64,000 nt of DNA. Origin: Candidatus Binatia bacterium. Its GTDB lineage: Bacteria > Desulfobacterota > Binatia > Bin18. The position numbers and the translations under genes are program-made. Each line of letters opens with the position of its first letter. Position 1 is the first letter of the stretch. Shown here one piece after another: positions 33,984-39,996 of this stretch. The notes under the pieces are model-generated. The model was not told the DNA's origin and ran no database searches. It saw only the letters and a list, made by a program, of their open reading frames with translations. The stretch is taken from NCBI GenBank assembly GCA_963664395.2, contig OY761159.2, forward strand, positions 3,513,710 through 3,577,709, read 5' to 3'.

Positions 33984-34292
33984 ATGGCCGCCGCCGAAGA
34001 CACAAGCTGGGAATACACGTTAGGCCGCATTGATGAGCGGACCGAGAACCTGGAGAAGCGCGTTGATGAACGGTTCGAGAACCTGGAGAAGCGCATTGAT
34101 GAACGGTTCGAGAACCTGGAGAAGCGCATTGACGAGCGGTTCGAGCATGTGGAACAGCGTCTTGGACGTGTGGAGTTTGATGTGAAGGGTATTCAGAAGA
34201 CGATTGACGAGAAGATGCTCAACAAGACAACCTTCTTCACGTTTACCAGCGTTGGCGCCGGTCTCCTGGCCGCGATGATCGCGCTGAAGTAG
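33984..34292 (+). CDS. Tail-anchored coiled-coil protein with four 33-nt (11-aa) tandem repeats
   Basis: Contains 'IDERTENLEKRVDERFENLEKRIDERFENLEKRIDERFEHVEQRL' and a C-terminal TM segment 'TTFFTFTSVGAGLLAAMIAL'. The tracked ATG at 33921 lies inside a repeat unit, so the ATG at 33984 is preferred. The start is uncertain. Confidence 0.6.
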   Translation: MAAAEDTSWEYTLGRIDERTENLEKRVDERFENLEKRIDERFENLEKRIDERFEHVEQRLGRVEFDVKGIQKTIDEKMLNKTTFFTFTSVGAGLLAAMIALK

Positions 34293-34333
34293 CTGTTGTG
34301 AAACACTCCTGACTCAAGCCAACCCCTTTGCTA

Positions 34334-34363
34334 TTGACACCTTTTCCAAGAGTACACTATAGT
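34334..34363 (+). promoter_or_regulatory. Candidate sigma70 promoter
   Basis: TTGACA-N18-TATAGT lies about 30 nt upstream of the 34393 ORF. Confidence 0.45.
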
Positions 34364-34392
34364 AATTTCATAATGCGCAAGGCTTTACGGGA

Positions 34393-34869
34393 GTGGGAAA
34401 CGAGCACGTGGTGATGGAAAAGTCCGGACGCTACCAGCCAGCCATACGCGGCATCGTGGGGGGAGTTGTCCTAGTAGCAGCCCTGGCCGCATTCCTTGGG
34501 TCGAGTCAGTCCGAAGCCGGGATTAAACAACGGGCCACGGCGTTCTGGGAAGCCCGTATCCAGGGTGACGACTTGACAGCCTATCAATACGAAACCTATG
34601 CCCACACCGGAGAGCTGACCGCCACGCAATATATCCAGGCCCTGTCGCCGATGCTGAAATACATGGCTTACACCATCGACACCATCCAGGAGCAGGAAAA
34701 CGAAGCCTCGGTCACGGTCAATGTGCGATGCCGGATAGACATTCCGGGCATGCTTGACGTGCCCTTATCTATGCCGATAAAGGAGCGTTGGGTGCGTCTT
34801 GACGATAGCCAGTGGTACCGCAACGTCAAACCCGAAAAGCTCGGCAAGGCCGCCCGTCGGCAGGGCTGA
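34393..34869 (+). CDS. Hypothetical exported protein
   Basis: 158 aa with an N-terminal hydrophobic segment 'IVGGVVLVAALAAFLGSS' followed by a soluble domain. No family recognised. The start may be the ATG at 34414. Confidence 0.6.
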   Translation: MGNEHVVMEKSGRYQPAIRGIVGGVVLVAALAAFLGSSQSEAGIKQRATAFWEARIQGDDLTAYQYETYAHTGELTATQYIQALSPMLKYMAYTIDTIQEQENEASVTVNVRCRIDIPGMLDVPLSMPIKERWVRLDDSQWYRNVKPEKLGKAARRQG

Positions 34870-34877
34870 ATGTTTGC

Positions 34878-34906
34878 TTGACAGGGTATGGGATATTCAC
34901 TATGGT
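34878..34906 (+). promoter_or_regulatory. Candidate sigma70 promoter followed by a leader of about 190 nt
   Basis: TTGACA-N17-TATGGT. The next plausible start codon (35101, after aaaggagag) lies about 190 nt downstream. Confidence 0.45.
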
Positions 34907-35100
34907 GCTCAGCAATCACGCCACACGGGGAAAATCGAAAGGCAATATTGATGTTCGGGCCGGACCGGAAAGGGCCATATGAAGGAGGCGAGGTATTGGC
35001 GAACACTAACGAAAACAAGTCCCCGGTGCCAGGTGGATATATGAGCAACACGACACATAAAACAGAAGAAAGAAGTTTTCAGGAAGAAAGGAGAGACGTG

Positions 35101-36627
35101 ATGAAGATGAATAAAATGTTTACGGGCCTAATCGCGTTGGTGGCGGGCGTTGCCCTCTCGGCGGGGAGTGCCTTTGCAACCAAGGGTTACTACCATAGGT
35201 GACCCGGCCAGGATGAAACTGGTCCCTTATTATGAGACCGGAGAGCTCGCTGACCGCGATTGTCAATGTCCAGAACCTGTCGCCGCAAGAGGCCACTACT
35301 GCGGCTCTGCAATGGCTGTTACGGCTGCTCAGGCTGCATTGGATGCTCTTAATGATATGGAGTTGAGCCTGACCATGCAGATACAATGCGGGCTGATGCT
35401 GAGATGGCCCTTGCGGATGCTATGGATGCGCTTTACACCGAACACCTCTTCGTTGTCGTGAATGTCCACGACGCAATGGGTATGATGATGGAGGATGCGT
35501 CAGAGAACTGTGTCTGGCAGAGAACCAGTTCGGATATGTCATTCTCACGGGGTTTGAGATGATGCATGGCGGAGATATCCCCAACCGCAGCGCTTGGTGC
35601 TCTCGATGGGCTGGTGACATCCCCGCATACGGCTATGTGAAGTCATGGCGGAGGGTCAGAAATGGTACGGCTGCGAGGGCCGCCCCGGCGACCTGACGGA
35701 TGGAGGCAGGTTACTGAGCCAGATTGCTGAGTAGCGGATTGTAGGCACTGAGTCCATTTGGCCAGCTCGCCGCCTGGACCATGTCCAGGACACTGGCACT
35801 GGTGCTTCTTCGGGACGGAAGTGATCGACCCTGCTCGATGGACCATTCTCCAGGACGTTGGGAGTGGTTTCTTCGGGACGGAATTGCATGCCCGACTGGC
35901 CTGCTATACAATTACAATGATGGCGGATGAGATGCTGAGCCACTCGATGATGCTACTGCCTGCCCGAATGATGCTACCGCTAAGTGTGACCCAGCAATAT
36001 GACAATAGGAATCCGACTTCATGATCCGGTGCGGCTTGATTCCCGAACGGCATGATAACAGGGGCGATCTACCAATGCATGCGACGGTACTGGGACTGAC
36101 TATGCCGCTGTCTGATGATGCGAGGCAACCACTCCTCGACTCCATGGTCATGCCATCGCCCGGTACGATACTGGGGCTGATGATTCCATGTCTTTGTGTG
36201 GTTGGCAACAGGCCACGACGATGAGGATGCCCCATGCGAGCGATGTCCCGGCCCGCTTGCGTAATCGTGATGCGAAGACGGGACGATGGCATGATTCCAG
36301 GGGACCATGTATCGCCGGGTGATGATGGCCCATCGCAAGTCCCCGCCCCGACCATAAGGTCACCATGATAGACCCGATGGTGATGCTGGGTCATGTACAC
36401 CGACATGTGATGCGGGCGACCGCGGTGTGCTGCGAATCACGATGCCGGATGGCAGCCACGCCGGCATGGTGTGGACCCATATCTCTCAGATGAATGGAAC
36501 AACTTCCGCATGAACTTCCCTGGGTACAACATGGCCAATCCGATGCCTGATGAGATGGGTGTTGCTGACGTGAGGCTGATGGAAACTGAGGTGGCTGCGG
36601 CCGCCTGCATGGCCCGTAACTCATCGT
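35101..36627 (+). pseudogene. Decayed gene for a secreted protein with a Met/His/Asp-rich C-terminal half (multiple frameshifts)
   Basis: A good RBS and the signal peptide 'MKMNKMFTGLIALVAGVALSAGSAFA' are present. Protein-like segments then hop between all three + frames ('KLVPYYETGE', 'TAIVNVQNLSPQE', 'HLFVVVNVHDAMG', 'ENQFGYVILTGFE', 'MNFPGYNMANPMPDEMGVADVRLMETEV'). The gene ends at a stop directly before a strong terminator. No ORF over 105 codons exists across 1.5 kb. Confidence 0.5.
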
Positions 36628-36682
36628 AACACGGCTCTAACAGAAGGAGGCAAGGGTTTCGGCCCTTGCCTCCTTTTTTTGT
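36626..36682 (+). terminator. Rho-independent terminator, family-E module copy 1
   Basis: ggaggcaaggg-tttcgg-cccttgcctcc followed by T8. The conserved 5' flank is taacacggctc. Confidence 0.75.
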
Positions 36683-38591: not shown

Positions 38592-38662
38592 GTAACATCA
38601 CCCAGAACACGACTCAGACAGCAGAAGACAAGGGTTTCGGCCCTTGCCTTCTTTTTTTGTCC
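38592..38662 (+). terminator. Family-E terminator module copy 3
   Basis: taacatcacccagaacacgactcagacagcagaagacaagggtttcggcccttgccttc followed by T7. Confidence 0.7.
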
Positions 38663-38668
38663 TGAACA

Positions 38669-38881
38669 ATCCCCTCTTGGGAGGGAAAGAGGAAACGTGT
38701 CCTTAATAGAGCAGGTAGATGTTGACACGTTTCCTCTTTGTGCCGCGTAGCGGCGGGGTGGGTTTCGTAGTCTCGCCGTGCTGCGCTGGCCGAACAGGAA
38801 CCCACCCCGGCCTTCGGCCACCCCTCCAAGGAGGGGAGCTGGAGGGTCTTGGCTTTGCGTTTTGCCGGGCGAGTTGGTAGG
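38669..38881. repeat. Composite repeat module: A reverse split by a B hairpin (38687-38740), spacer, A forward, and the shared leader
   Basis: Same architecture as 38035-38270 and 33019-33116. Confidence 0.85.
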
Positions 38882-38892
38882 CTGGGTGCCCT

Positions 38893-39400
38893 ATGGCGAG
38901 CGCAACATTTGATACCTTACACGCGGCCAAGGCGCTGACGGCGGCGGGCTTTGAGGCACAGCAAGCCGAGGCAATCACGGACACGATCCGAGAGGCGTTT
39001 ACCGAGAGTGTAGCCACCAAGGCCGATATCGCCGGCCTGGAAGCAGCCGTAACCGCAGATATCGCCGAGGTCAAGGCGGAGTTGAAGGCCGATATCGCCG
39101 GCCTGGAAGCAGCCGTAACCGCAGATATCGCCGAGGAAGGCGGAGTTGAAGGCCGATATTGCTGAGGTAAGGACGGAAATCGCCGAGGTGAAGGCCGAGT
39201 TGAAGGCAGATATCGCCGAGGTGAAGGCGGAGTTGAAGGCCGATATTGCCGAGGTAAGGACGGAAATCGCCGAGGTGAAGACGGAAATCGCCGAGTTGAA
39301 GGCCGAATTGAAAGCCGACATCGCGGGCATATACAAGCAGCTCTGGCTGGTAGCGCTGGGCATCGTGACGGCAGTCGCGGCGATTGTGAAACTGTTGTAA
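38893..39400 (+). pseudogene. DUF1640-like tail-anchored coiled-coil protein, copy 1, with a frameshift at about 39136
   Basis: Starts 'MASATFDTLHAAKALTAAGFEAQQAEAITDTIREAF'. It has a 66-nt tandem duplication (39022-39087 and 39088-39151), and the second copy lacks 2 nt (gaggtcaagg versus gagg--aagg). The C-terminal part '...IYKQLWLVALGIVTAVAAIVKLL' lies in the next frame. Confidence 0.65.
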
Positions 39401-39410
39401 GGGACAGGCT

Positions 39411-39679
39411 ATGGCGAGCGCAACGTTTGATACCTTACACGCGGCCAAGGCGCTGACCGCGGCGGGCTTTGAGTCCCAACAAGCCGAGGCGATCACGACA
39501 CGATCCGGGACGCCTTCACCGAGAGTGTCGCCACCAAGGCCGACATCGCCGAGGTGAAGACGGAAATCGCCGAGTTGAAGGCCGAGTTGAAAGCCGACAT
39601 CGCGGGCATATACAAGCAGCTCTGGCTGGTAGCGCTGGGCATCGTGACGGCCGTCGCGGCGATTGTGAAACTGTTGTAA
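39411..39679 (+). pseudogene. DUF1640-like protein, copy 2, with a 1-nt deletion at about 39497
   Basis: It has the same N-terminus as copies 1 and 3. The sequence atcacgacacgatcc here corresponds to atcacggacacgatcc in copy 1. The 3' 130 nt are nearly identical to copy 1. Length is 269 nt. Confidence 0.65.
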
Positions 39680-39693
39680 GCAGGACAGGTTCT

Positions 39694-39996
39694 ATGGCAA
39701 CGGCGACGTTTGATACCTTACACGCGGCCAAGGCGCTGACCGCGGCGGGCTTTGAGGCCCAACAAGCCGAGGCGATCACCGATACGATCCGGGACGCCTT
39801 CACCGAGAGCGTGGCCACCAAGGCCGACATCGCCGAGTTGAGGGCGGATATAGCGAGCCTGGAAACGCGGCTGGTCGAACGGATAGACGCGGTGGAAACG
39901 CGGGTGGCAGAGCGTTTTGAGGCGCTCTACAAGCAGCTCTGGCTGATGGCGCTGGGCATCGTGACGGCAGTCGCGGCGATTGTGAAACTGTTGTAG
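39694..39996 (+). CDS. DUF1640-like tail-anchored coiled-coil protein, copy 3 (intact)
   Basis: 100 aa: 'MATATFDTLHAAKALTAAGFEAQQAEAITDTIRDAFTESVATKADIAELRADIASLETRL...LYKQLWLMALGIVTAVAAIVKLL'. Confidence 0.8.
   Translation: MATATFDTLHAAKALTAAGFEAQQAEAITDTIRDAFTESVATKADIAELRADIASLETRLVERIDAVETRVAERFEALYKQLWLMALGIVTAVAAIVKLL

Follow-up and report, generated by a model that had tools for sequence, protein, structure and literature searches.

Small tail-anchored stalk proteins in a Candidatus Binatia genome: a probable multigene set with repeat and gene turnover

The window analysed here is a stretch of 64,000 nt from the genome of a Candidatus Binatia bacterium (positions 3513710-3577709 of C1, the 4.8-Mb contig that together with 13 small ones makes up an assembly of 5.04 Mb with 57% G+C). 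It contains six genes, here named A to F, for small proteins with a predicted C-terminal transmembrane (TM) helix. Genes A to E lie in or beside a 7-kb accessory island, and gene F is located 17 kb further on, inside a glycan locus. It is considered probable (about 0.72) that the window holds a multigene set of small tail-anchored stalk proteins whose length and copy number evolve by the turnover of repeats and of genes. The six genes and the repeats found in them, mostly with Tandem Repeats Finder (TRF), are as follows.

33984..34292, + strand: gene A, 102 aa, tail-anchored repeat protein, not of the DUF1640 type
34026..34157, + strand: four 33-nt tandem units forming the predicted hendecad stalk of A (TRF; 92% and 83% identity in the repeat search)
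34026-34145: TRF repeat in A, period 33 nt, 3.6 copies, 91% match, score 198
37714..37953, - strand: gene B, 79 aa, helical and tail-anchored, IATKAE motif close to the anchor
38893..39400, + strand: gene C, DUF1640-type, conceptual product of 169 aa, frame broken at ~39135 within the second 66-nt unit
39019..39159, + strand: 66-nt unit of C (22 aa, KADIAGLEAAVTADIAEVKAEL), two copies here, the second of 64 nt
39019-39159: TRF repeat in C, period 66 nt, 2.2 copies, 97% match, score 264
39121..39324, + strand: 33-, 21- and 87-nt repeats in C, giving stalk units of 11 and 7 residues (TRF; stalk set out in rows of 11)
39121-39280: TRF repeat in C, period 87 nt, 1.9 copies, 96% match, score 295
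39179-39259: TRF repeat in C, period 33 nt, 2.5 copies, 91% match
39411..39679, + strand: gene D, DUF1640-type, conceptual product of 89 aa, frame broken at ~39496-39497, in the head
39694..39996, + strand: gene E, intact, DUF1640-type, 100 aa, degenerate hendecads
56949..57434, - strand: gene F, intact, DUF1640/CCDC90-like, 161 aa, with head, LATQAD neck, repeat stalk and TM anchor
57046..57275, - strand: tandem DNA repeats in F, 3.2 copies of 33 nt and 2.9 copies of 54 nt (TRF)
57046-57149: TRF repeat in F, period 33 nt, 3.2 copies, 91% match, score 173
57120-57275: TRF repeat in F, period 54 nt, 2.9 copies, 94% match, score 270

All DNA repeats that had been claimed in an earlier note on this stretch were thus recovered by TRF (periods of 33, 66 and 54 nt, 91-97% match). 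Genes C and D, which the same note had listed among the six genes, have lengths of 508 nt and 269 nt that are not multiples of three, and both are therefore frameshifted in the assembly. In C, frame 0 runs to a stop at 39165 and the 3' part continues in frame +1. The last ~125 nt of D differ from C at two positions.

Families and architecture of the six proteins

The Pfam model of DUF1640 (PF07798, gathering cut-off 33.5 bits) was matched by F with 58.1 bits, by the 5' part of C with 33.8 bits, by E with 33.1 bits and by fragments of D with at most 19.8 bits, and was not matched by A or B. Gene D owes its place in the family to its conceptual product, which shares about 90% identity with C and E. 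DUF1640 proteins are integral membrane proteins of prokaryotes and mitochondria, in which the C-terminal stalk opens with the beta-layer motif [aliphatic]-A-T-K-[polar]-[DE] (Hartmann et al. 2016, PMC4786415). The corresponding neck at the stalk start reads VATKAD in C, D and E and LATQAD (K to Q) in F, and is absent from A. Searched against the PDB, gene F matched 6H9L_A with E = 8.1e-9 and 6H9M_A (CCDC90B-GCN4) with E = 0.019; the sequence of 6H9L, deposited as 'uncharacterized protein', itself contains 11-residue repeats, ATKEDIEALRK, like those of F. Judged by their sequences, C, D, E and F are DUF1640/CCDC90-like, and the six genes form at least three groups unrelated by sequence.

The earlier note had described the six genes as one family of a single design. 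As a family the set falls apart into these groups, and of the design only the anchor is common to all: the best 19-residue Kyte-Doolittle hydropathy window, on which the TM call is based, has a mean of 1.8-2.4 and lies at the very end of each of the six products, leaving 0-3 residues beyond it, while B has no repeat and A no head domain. The coiled-coil prediction was borne out for A, C, E and F, the stalks of which have a hydrophobic periodicity of 3.60-3.67 residues, i.e. hendecads or combinations of 7 and 11 residues; such values are compatible with a trimer and do not fix the oligomer. The stalk of F is built from an 18-residue unit (ETKTSIAGVQRDIEALRQ) and an 11-residue unit (GTKADIEALRL). 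Modelled as a monomer with AlphaFold2 from an alignment of 54 sequences, F is predicted (mean confidence score, pLDDT, 92.5) to consist of a short helix (residues 9-18) packed on one continuous helix (residues 23-160).

Gene A is composed of a conserved 21-residue N-terminal peptide (MAAAEDxSWEYTLGRIDERTE) in place of a head domain, four copies of the 11-residue unit RIDERFENLEK, an EKMLNK-TTFF pre-anchor motif and the C-terminal TM helix. When 22 A-type proteins were aligned, the N-terminal peptide was strictly conserved and the repeat core variable, and the motif (E/D)xMLTK-TFF as well as the anchor were conserved. No Pfam model covers this family, and the match of A to XhlA (PF10779, cut-off 34.7 bits) was sub-threshold at 18.1 bits. 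Homology of A to DUF1640 was considered and rejected: in hhalign, the alignment of the A family with that of the E family reached a probability of 8.8%, over the anchor region alone. On sequence grounds A belongs to an analogous family that is unrelated to the DUF1640 genes and appears to evolve in the same way. In several species of the genus it occupies a syntenic chromosomal position.

A 67-aa protein at another locus (L127, G008:C197:30094-31734) joins the N-terminal peptide of the A type (MATAEDTSWEYTLGRIDERTE) to a pre-anchor region and anchor of the DUF1640 C/E type (FARLYRHLWVMAASIVGLTVTLVKLLA), so modules are exchanged between the two families.

Gene B has only the tail-anchored design in common with the other five. 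No tandem repeat was found in it by TRF or the repeat scan, its hydrophobic periodicity is ~3.4, and it matched neither PF07798 nor, above threshold, XhlA (14.3 bits).

Variation of stalk length and gene number among strains

For the comparison of strains, contigs encoding E at 96-99% identity were used. These are 11 contigs from four metagenome assemblies, all with this island, bounded by the secretin gene and wzt, and all 96-98% identical to the window. The arrays located 5' of wzt (lengths in aa) are given below.

Window: C 169 (conceptual, frameshifted) - D 89 (conceptual, frameshifted) - E 100
L181: C 169 - D 89 - E 100, all intact
L179: C 169 - E 100
L161 and L163: C 147 - 82 - D 89 - E 100
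L162: C 191 - 82 - 89 - 122 - E 100
L164: C 147 - gap - E 100
L165: C 147 - 79 - E 100
L160: broken C, broken D - E 100
L180 (2x coverage): broken C - E 100
L159: F-type 114 - 158 - 111 - 198 - 89 - E 100

The arrays thus comprise 2-6 genes, and a single sample (ERZ28763718) contains three different array haplotypes. In DNA alignments the C alleles of 147, 169 and 191 aa correspond to one, two and three copies of the 66-nt unit, with hardly any other difference. F-type alleles of 121, 132, 143, 144, 150, 161, 164, 165, 172 and 179 aa were found, with identical head and anchor and with lengths differing by the 11-residue and 18-residue units; the allele of 172 aa is present on the L161 and L163 contigs and that of 132 aa on the L162 contig. 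Near-identical A proteins contain one to four RIDERFENLEK units, two of them in L179. Gene E, the repeats of which are degenerate, encodes 100 aa in 11 of 11 strain contigs, and B encodes 79 aa in every strain that carries it. Since the genes with near-perfect repeats (C, F, A) vary and those with degenerate or absent repeats (E, B) never do, near-perfect DNA repeats accompany length polymorphism. The expectation that near-identical repeats make stalk length variable between strains was therefore supported for C (1-3 units), for the F series and for A (1-4 units), and the repeats were likewise present in homologues from relatives. Across the species of the genus, lengths range from 70 to 264 aa for C/E-type, from 85 to 205 aa for F-type and from 67 to 135 aa for A-type proteins.

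The window and the intact L181 array of the same composition differ over 1144 alignment columns by 31 substitutions and by exactly the two indels that shift the frames of C and D. Both frameshifts lie outside simple-sequence tracts. A general indel error of the assembly is unlikely to be the whole story, as the adjacent wzt has 0 gaps in 1281 nt; a consensus error at these two specific positions may have occurred. A locus switched on and off by phase variation was rejected, since the units of 21, 33, 54 and 66 nt are all in frame and whole-unit alleles stay open.

Stalk length was measured from the neck motif up to the pre-anchor motif. For C/E-type proteins, 22 distinct lengths were found among 109 proteins, and all 109 can be written as 21+7a+11b. 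All 17 differences below 60 fall on the 7a+11b lattice, which contains half of the integers below 60. The lattice was also followed by 97 of 104 F-type and 18 of 22 A-type proteins, the exceptions including sequences with obvious small insertions. This length lattice agrees with a coiled coil that runs unbroken from the neck to the membrane and tolerates whole periods alone. In gene E, compared over eight strains, 10 variable codons of head and neck are synonymous-only and none is non-synonymous, against 4 and 3 in the stalk and 5 and 1 in the anchor; the head of E is under purifying selection.

Promoter-like signals were identified close to the start codons.

33948..33976, + strand: putative promoter of A, TTGACA at 33948-33953, 17-nt spacer, ACTAAT at 33971-33976, ending 7 nt before the ATG
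38802..38884, + strand: element preceding the DUF1640 array; its last part is TTGGTAGGCT, an extended -10-like box placed 9 nt ahead of the ATG of C
57443..57451, - strand: extended -10 box TGcTATAGT of F, the end of which is 8 nt from the ATG

A -10-like hexamer (TATAGT or ACTAAT) is located exactly 7 nt 5' of the ATG in 18 A-type genes of other strains and species, in which the flanks differ. TGcTATAGT is kept 8 nt 5' of the ATG in 12 F-type genes of other species, TGgTAGGCT is found across species 9 nt 5' of the ATG in the first gene of C/E arrays, and the type of element at 38802-38884 is kept 5' of the first array gene in ~20 loci of other species. The scan for consensus promoters did not flag the TTGACA-ACTAAT promoter of gene A. 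No Shine-Dalgarno (SD) sequence was found before the genes with an ATG-proximal -10 box (A, F and the first C/E array genes); later array genes are preceded by an SD-like GGACAGG 5-7 nt upstream and separated by spacers of 10-14 nt. In the A, F and C lineages only 7-9 nt separate the -10 box from the ATG, which suggests that the first genes have leaderless mRNAs; later array genes would be translated by coupling.

Relatives in the genus, the island and searches for function

At E <= 1e-5, 18 of the 24 genomes examined from the genus had matches to PF07798, as many as 12 in one genome; of 15 genomes sampled from the remaining families of the class one had a match, and of 14 control genomes none. 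The DUF1640 family is expanded in the genus. The genome of the window alone contains ~10 DUF1640 copies or fragments, including a tandem pair at C1:3002924-3003518 (112 and 70 aa). A third, minimal DUF1640-like subtype of ~70 aa (TELYDALIAAGAPEEKARAAAQAM...LATKADIARLERE...anchor) is encoded at C11:8667-8987, C1:4463898-4464218 and C1:2150174-2150527. The three copies are near-identical and their upstream sequence is identical; this subtype may ride on a mobile element.

On one side the island is flanked by a cluster resembling type II secretion and type IV pilus systems (GspF, a PilN-like protein and a secretin at 30761-33004), and on the other side by a glycan-export locus with wzt (40127-41329), wzm (41341-42123) and subsequent glycosyltransferase genes. 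The strain-variable island also contains a DUF559 nuclease and a ParE toxin pair. Two further features accompany its genes.

37693-37672, - strand: terminator-like hairpin after gene B
38191-38273: 83-nt element preceding the gene at 38268-38534, 95% identical to the 38802-38884 element before gene C

Between the window and sister strains, 23-43 gap openings were counted at 34-37 kb, a region that covers the gene at 35101-36627, compared with 0-4 gap openings in the wzt region. The gene at 35101-36627 encodes a protein with an N-terminal signal peptide (MKMNKMFTGLIALVAGVALSAGSAFA); in the window it is scrambled across several frames, and in L161, L163, L165, L179, L180 and L181 it is an intact open reading frame (ORF) of 484-524 aa that has no recorded Pfam match. 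At 37019-37467 sister strains encode a 77-aa antitoxin and a 90-aa ParE toxin, and the window only a 64-aa RelE/ParE-like ORF. As the BLAST alignment breaks at 37271-37276 with ~100 nt missing, the ParE pair looks inactivated by deletion. The gene at 38268-38534 encodes a small membrane protein of opposite design, in which a TM helix in the middle is flanked by an N-terminal region and a C-terminal helix; the protein is conserved in every sister strain and has no match in Pfam or PHROGs.

Several repeat families were observed in the island. An element of ~70 nt is present three times (36615-36684, 37544-37613 and 38593-38662), each copy 3' of an island gene, and its end forms a strong terminator-like hairpin (GGCAAGGGTTTCGGCCCTTGCC) with a T run behind it. 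GC-rich hairpin repeats with the core CCACCCCTCCAAGGAGGGG are scattered in large number over 33019-38884, both single and in tandem (33788-33885, 38151-38227), and the island appears as a mosaic of hairpin repeats and longer shared modules (repeat families D4 and D7-D11). Between gene E and wzt, at 40039-40078, a 10-nt unit (AAGGATATCA) with a GATATC core is repeated four times. A search of the island against Rfam gave one sub-threshold hit and nothing else.

When 1011 ORFs from 78 related loci of diverse taxa were clustered, no partner recurred beyond same-genus synteny. No PADLOC defence model matched E or B, and A and F gave weak matches with E-values of 0.0002 or worse; NCBIfam yielded no credible match for any of the proteins. 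In PHROGs, relatives were found in phrog_17872 and phrog_9415 and B matched phrog_937 ('hemolysin') with E = 0.0035, while apart from that label only families of unknown function were matched. The sole match of F in a tblastn search of phage genomes was Sodalis phage phiSG1, over the head, and gave no clue to function. At eight loci of insect-symbiont Enterobacterales, namely Symbiopectobacterium and Sodalis (L074, L076, L083, L085, L086, L092, L117 and L118), DUF1640 relatives adjoin ORFs that were judged by eye to be phage-like (antirepressor-like, YqaJ-exonuclease-like).

Interpretation and relation to known proteins

The following mechanism is proposed. The products of C, D, E and F each consist of a ~40-residue helical head, the neck (VATKAD or LATQAD), a long helix and one TM helix at the extreme C terminus, the stalks being encoded by in-frame tandem DNA repeats of 21, 33, 54 and 66 nt. 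Whole units would be gained or lost when repeats slip or recombine unequally, and whole genes when neighbouring gene copies recombine, so that co-existing strains come to differ in stalk length and array size. The coiled-coil phase would be kept, lengths being sums of 7 and 11 residues, and single copies would often be lost by frameshift, as for C and D here, in a process of birth-and-death evolution. The proteins are probably homotrimeric, given their homology to 6H9L and 6H9M. Head and stalk are probably cytoplasmic, considering the tail anchor, the lack of a signal peptide and the yeast homologues Put6 and Put7, which face the mitochondrial matrix (PMC7519068). The conserved head would be held off the membrane at a distance set by the number of repeats; in this strain, at ~0.15 nm per residue, the head of D would stand ~4 nm away, that of E 6 nm, that of F 14 nm and that of C 16 nm. 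By analogy with MCUR1 and CCDC90B, the role would be that of a membrane-proximal scaffold or spacer. The molecular role of MCUR1 and CCDC90B is still debated even in mitochondria.

Several points weigh against this interpretation. The score of E is marginally under the PF07798 cut-off (33.1 against 33.5 bits). The 7a+11b lattice may in part be a by-product of DNA unit sizes rather than of selection on each allele, and every length difference above 59 residues can be represented in this way. Two of the four DUF1640 genes in the window are out of frame and several strain contigs have broken copies; since broken copies are frequent, individual copies appear dispensable. Some of the contigs have low coverage (2x-12x) and may hold consensus errors. 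Foldseek found no match below E = 1 in the PDB for the model of F, which is expected for a model that is a single long helix. Oligomeric state, topology and expression are all features that we infer.

Among the alternative explanations, adaptive diversification survives best, in which variation of length and copy number would provide graded spacers or decoys, moulded by conflicts such as those with phages or other mobile elements. The position of the genes in a strain-variable island (secretin to wzt/wzm) together with a ParE toxin pair and a DUF559 nuclease, the several haplotypes in one sample, the conserved heads on variable stalks and the relatives in phage families phrog_17872 and phrog_9415 would agree with it; it is nevertheless judged unlikely, because no PADLOC model matches E or B and those of A and F match only weakly, no neighbour recurs over the 78 loci, and strong selection on each length is hard to reconcile with so many frameshifted copies.

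It is a good deal less probable that the genes are decaying, functionless remnants, i.e. unstable low-complexity repeats in a junk-rich island with frames open by chance. The synonymous-only variation in the head of E (10 codons to 0 over eight strains), the intact alleles of every gene in sister strains, the conservation of head, neck and anchor through the genus and beyond, the promoter-like boxes at fixed conserved distances from the ATG and the lengths that keep the coiled-coil phase all speak against decay, in spite of the frameshifts in C and D, the scrambled 1.5-kb gene and the truncated ParE pair of the same island in this assembly, and the concentration of indels there (23-43 gap openings at 34-37 kb versus 0 in 1281 nt of wzt).

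Little credence is likewise given to A and B as XhlA-like, phage-derived lysis membrane proteins, holin partners unrelated in role to the DUF1640 genes. XhlA, known from Bacillus prophage lysis cassettes, resembles A and B in having a small N-terminal coiled coil and a C-terminal TM helix, and besides the weak PF10779 matches of A and B (18.1 and 14.3 bits), eight of the 22 A-family members have matches, the best at E = 1.2e-5, and B matches the 'hemolysin' family phrog_937. Every match is, however, under the curated cut-off of 34.7 bits, and unlike XhlA these genes have no lysis-gene context: no holin, endolysin or other phage gene is located nearby, the neighbours being the DUF559 nuclease, the ParE pair, small membrane proteins, the secretin and wzt/wzm. 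Gene A furthermore has its own strictly conserved N-terminal peptide and a syntenic chromosomal site in several species, and L127 joins an A-type head to a DUF1640-type anchor.

It is hardly credible that the length differences arose through mis-assembly of repetitive DNA in mixtures of strains: several contigs do have 2x-12x coverage by their names, some of those with low coverage are frameshifted at differing places and C and D of the window are only two indels away from an intact sister allele, but C of 147 aa was recovered in four contigs from two samples, C of 169 aa in three assemblies and F of 132 aa in at least five protein clusters, the alleles differ throughout by entire in-frame units while their flanks agree to the base, and species-representative genomes, many of them single-contig, have the same pattern.

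The architecture and the family as such have already been published. CCDC90-like proteins (MCUR1, CCDC90B, Put6/Put7 and prokaryotic members) have the same order of head, neck, coiled-coil stalk and C-terminal TM anchor. Compared with the known members, proteins of the type found in the window are very short (82-191 aa), are encoded in tandem arrays, are apparently leaderless and have a repeat-driven length polymorphism between strains; the eukaryotic members are single-copy mitochondrial scaffold factors, unlike the bacterial arrays.

Braun's lipoprotein Lpp, trimeric autotransporter adhesins and streptococcal M proteins also have coiled coils whose length, and thereby the distance from anchor to functional end, is set by the number of repeats. 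They are exported to the periplasm or the surface, whereas the window proteins lack a signal peptide and are predicted to be oriented towards the cytoplasm. ElaB, YqjD and YgaM (DUF883) of E. coli are small tail-anchored inner-membrane proteins with a cytoplasmic N-terminal helical region, and they are not known to have a repeat-built stalk or arrays; none of the six window proteins matched a DUF883 model in the Pfam scan.

Near-perfect A-T-K-x-D tandem repeats are present in Tcar0761 of Thermosinus carboxydivorans and in alpha/beta coiled coils of the DUF3782 type, where they form a trimeric fibre (PMC4786415). The repeats of C (xLKADIA, ATKADIA) and F (GTKADIE) resemble copies of the neck motif and are in this respect comparable. 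The Tcar0761-type repeats are nonads (9 residues) that form beta-layers, in contrast to the units of 11, 18 and 22 residues found here, which with a periodicity of 3.6-3.67 fit a continuous hendecad/heptad helix. In the literature searched, which left out Adlakha et al. 2019 (Structure 27:464), no description of strain-level stalk-length polymorphism, arrays or leaderless expression was found.

DUF1640 represents the bacterial side of the MCUR1/CCDC90B family. At this locus in-frame repeat turnover, familiar from surface proteins, is seen to affect predicted cytoplasmic membrane proteins as well. A further, tentative and rather doubtful step is to regard the arrays as length-graded, cytoplasmic, membrane-anchored spacers, that is, homotrimers presenting the same head at differing fixed distances of ~3-30 nm from the inner membrane face, of which selection by phages or the host environment possibly keeps several lengths. 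If true, such arrays would be a tunable bacterial 'molecular ruler' driven by repeat slippage and with leaderless mRNAs. The locus offers a natural experiment, in which one head and one anchor are combined with stalks that change by whole coiled-coil periods among co-existing strains, and the allelic series of C (147, 169 and 191 aa) and F (121-179 aa) could be used to test the effect of membrane distance and the design of hendecad coiled coils.

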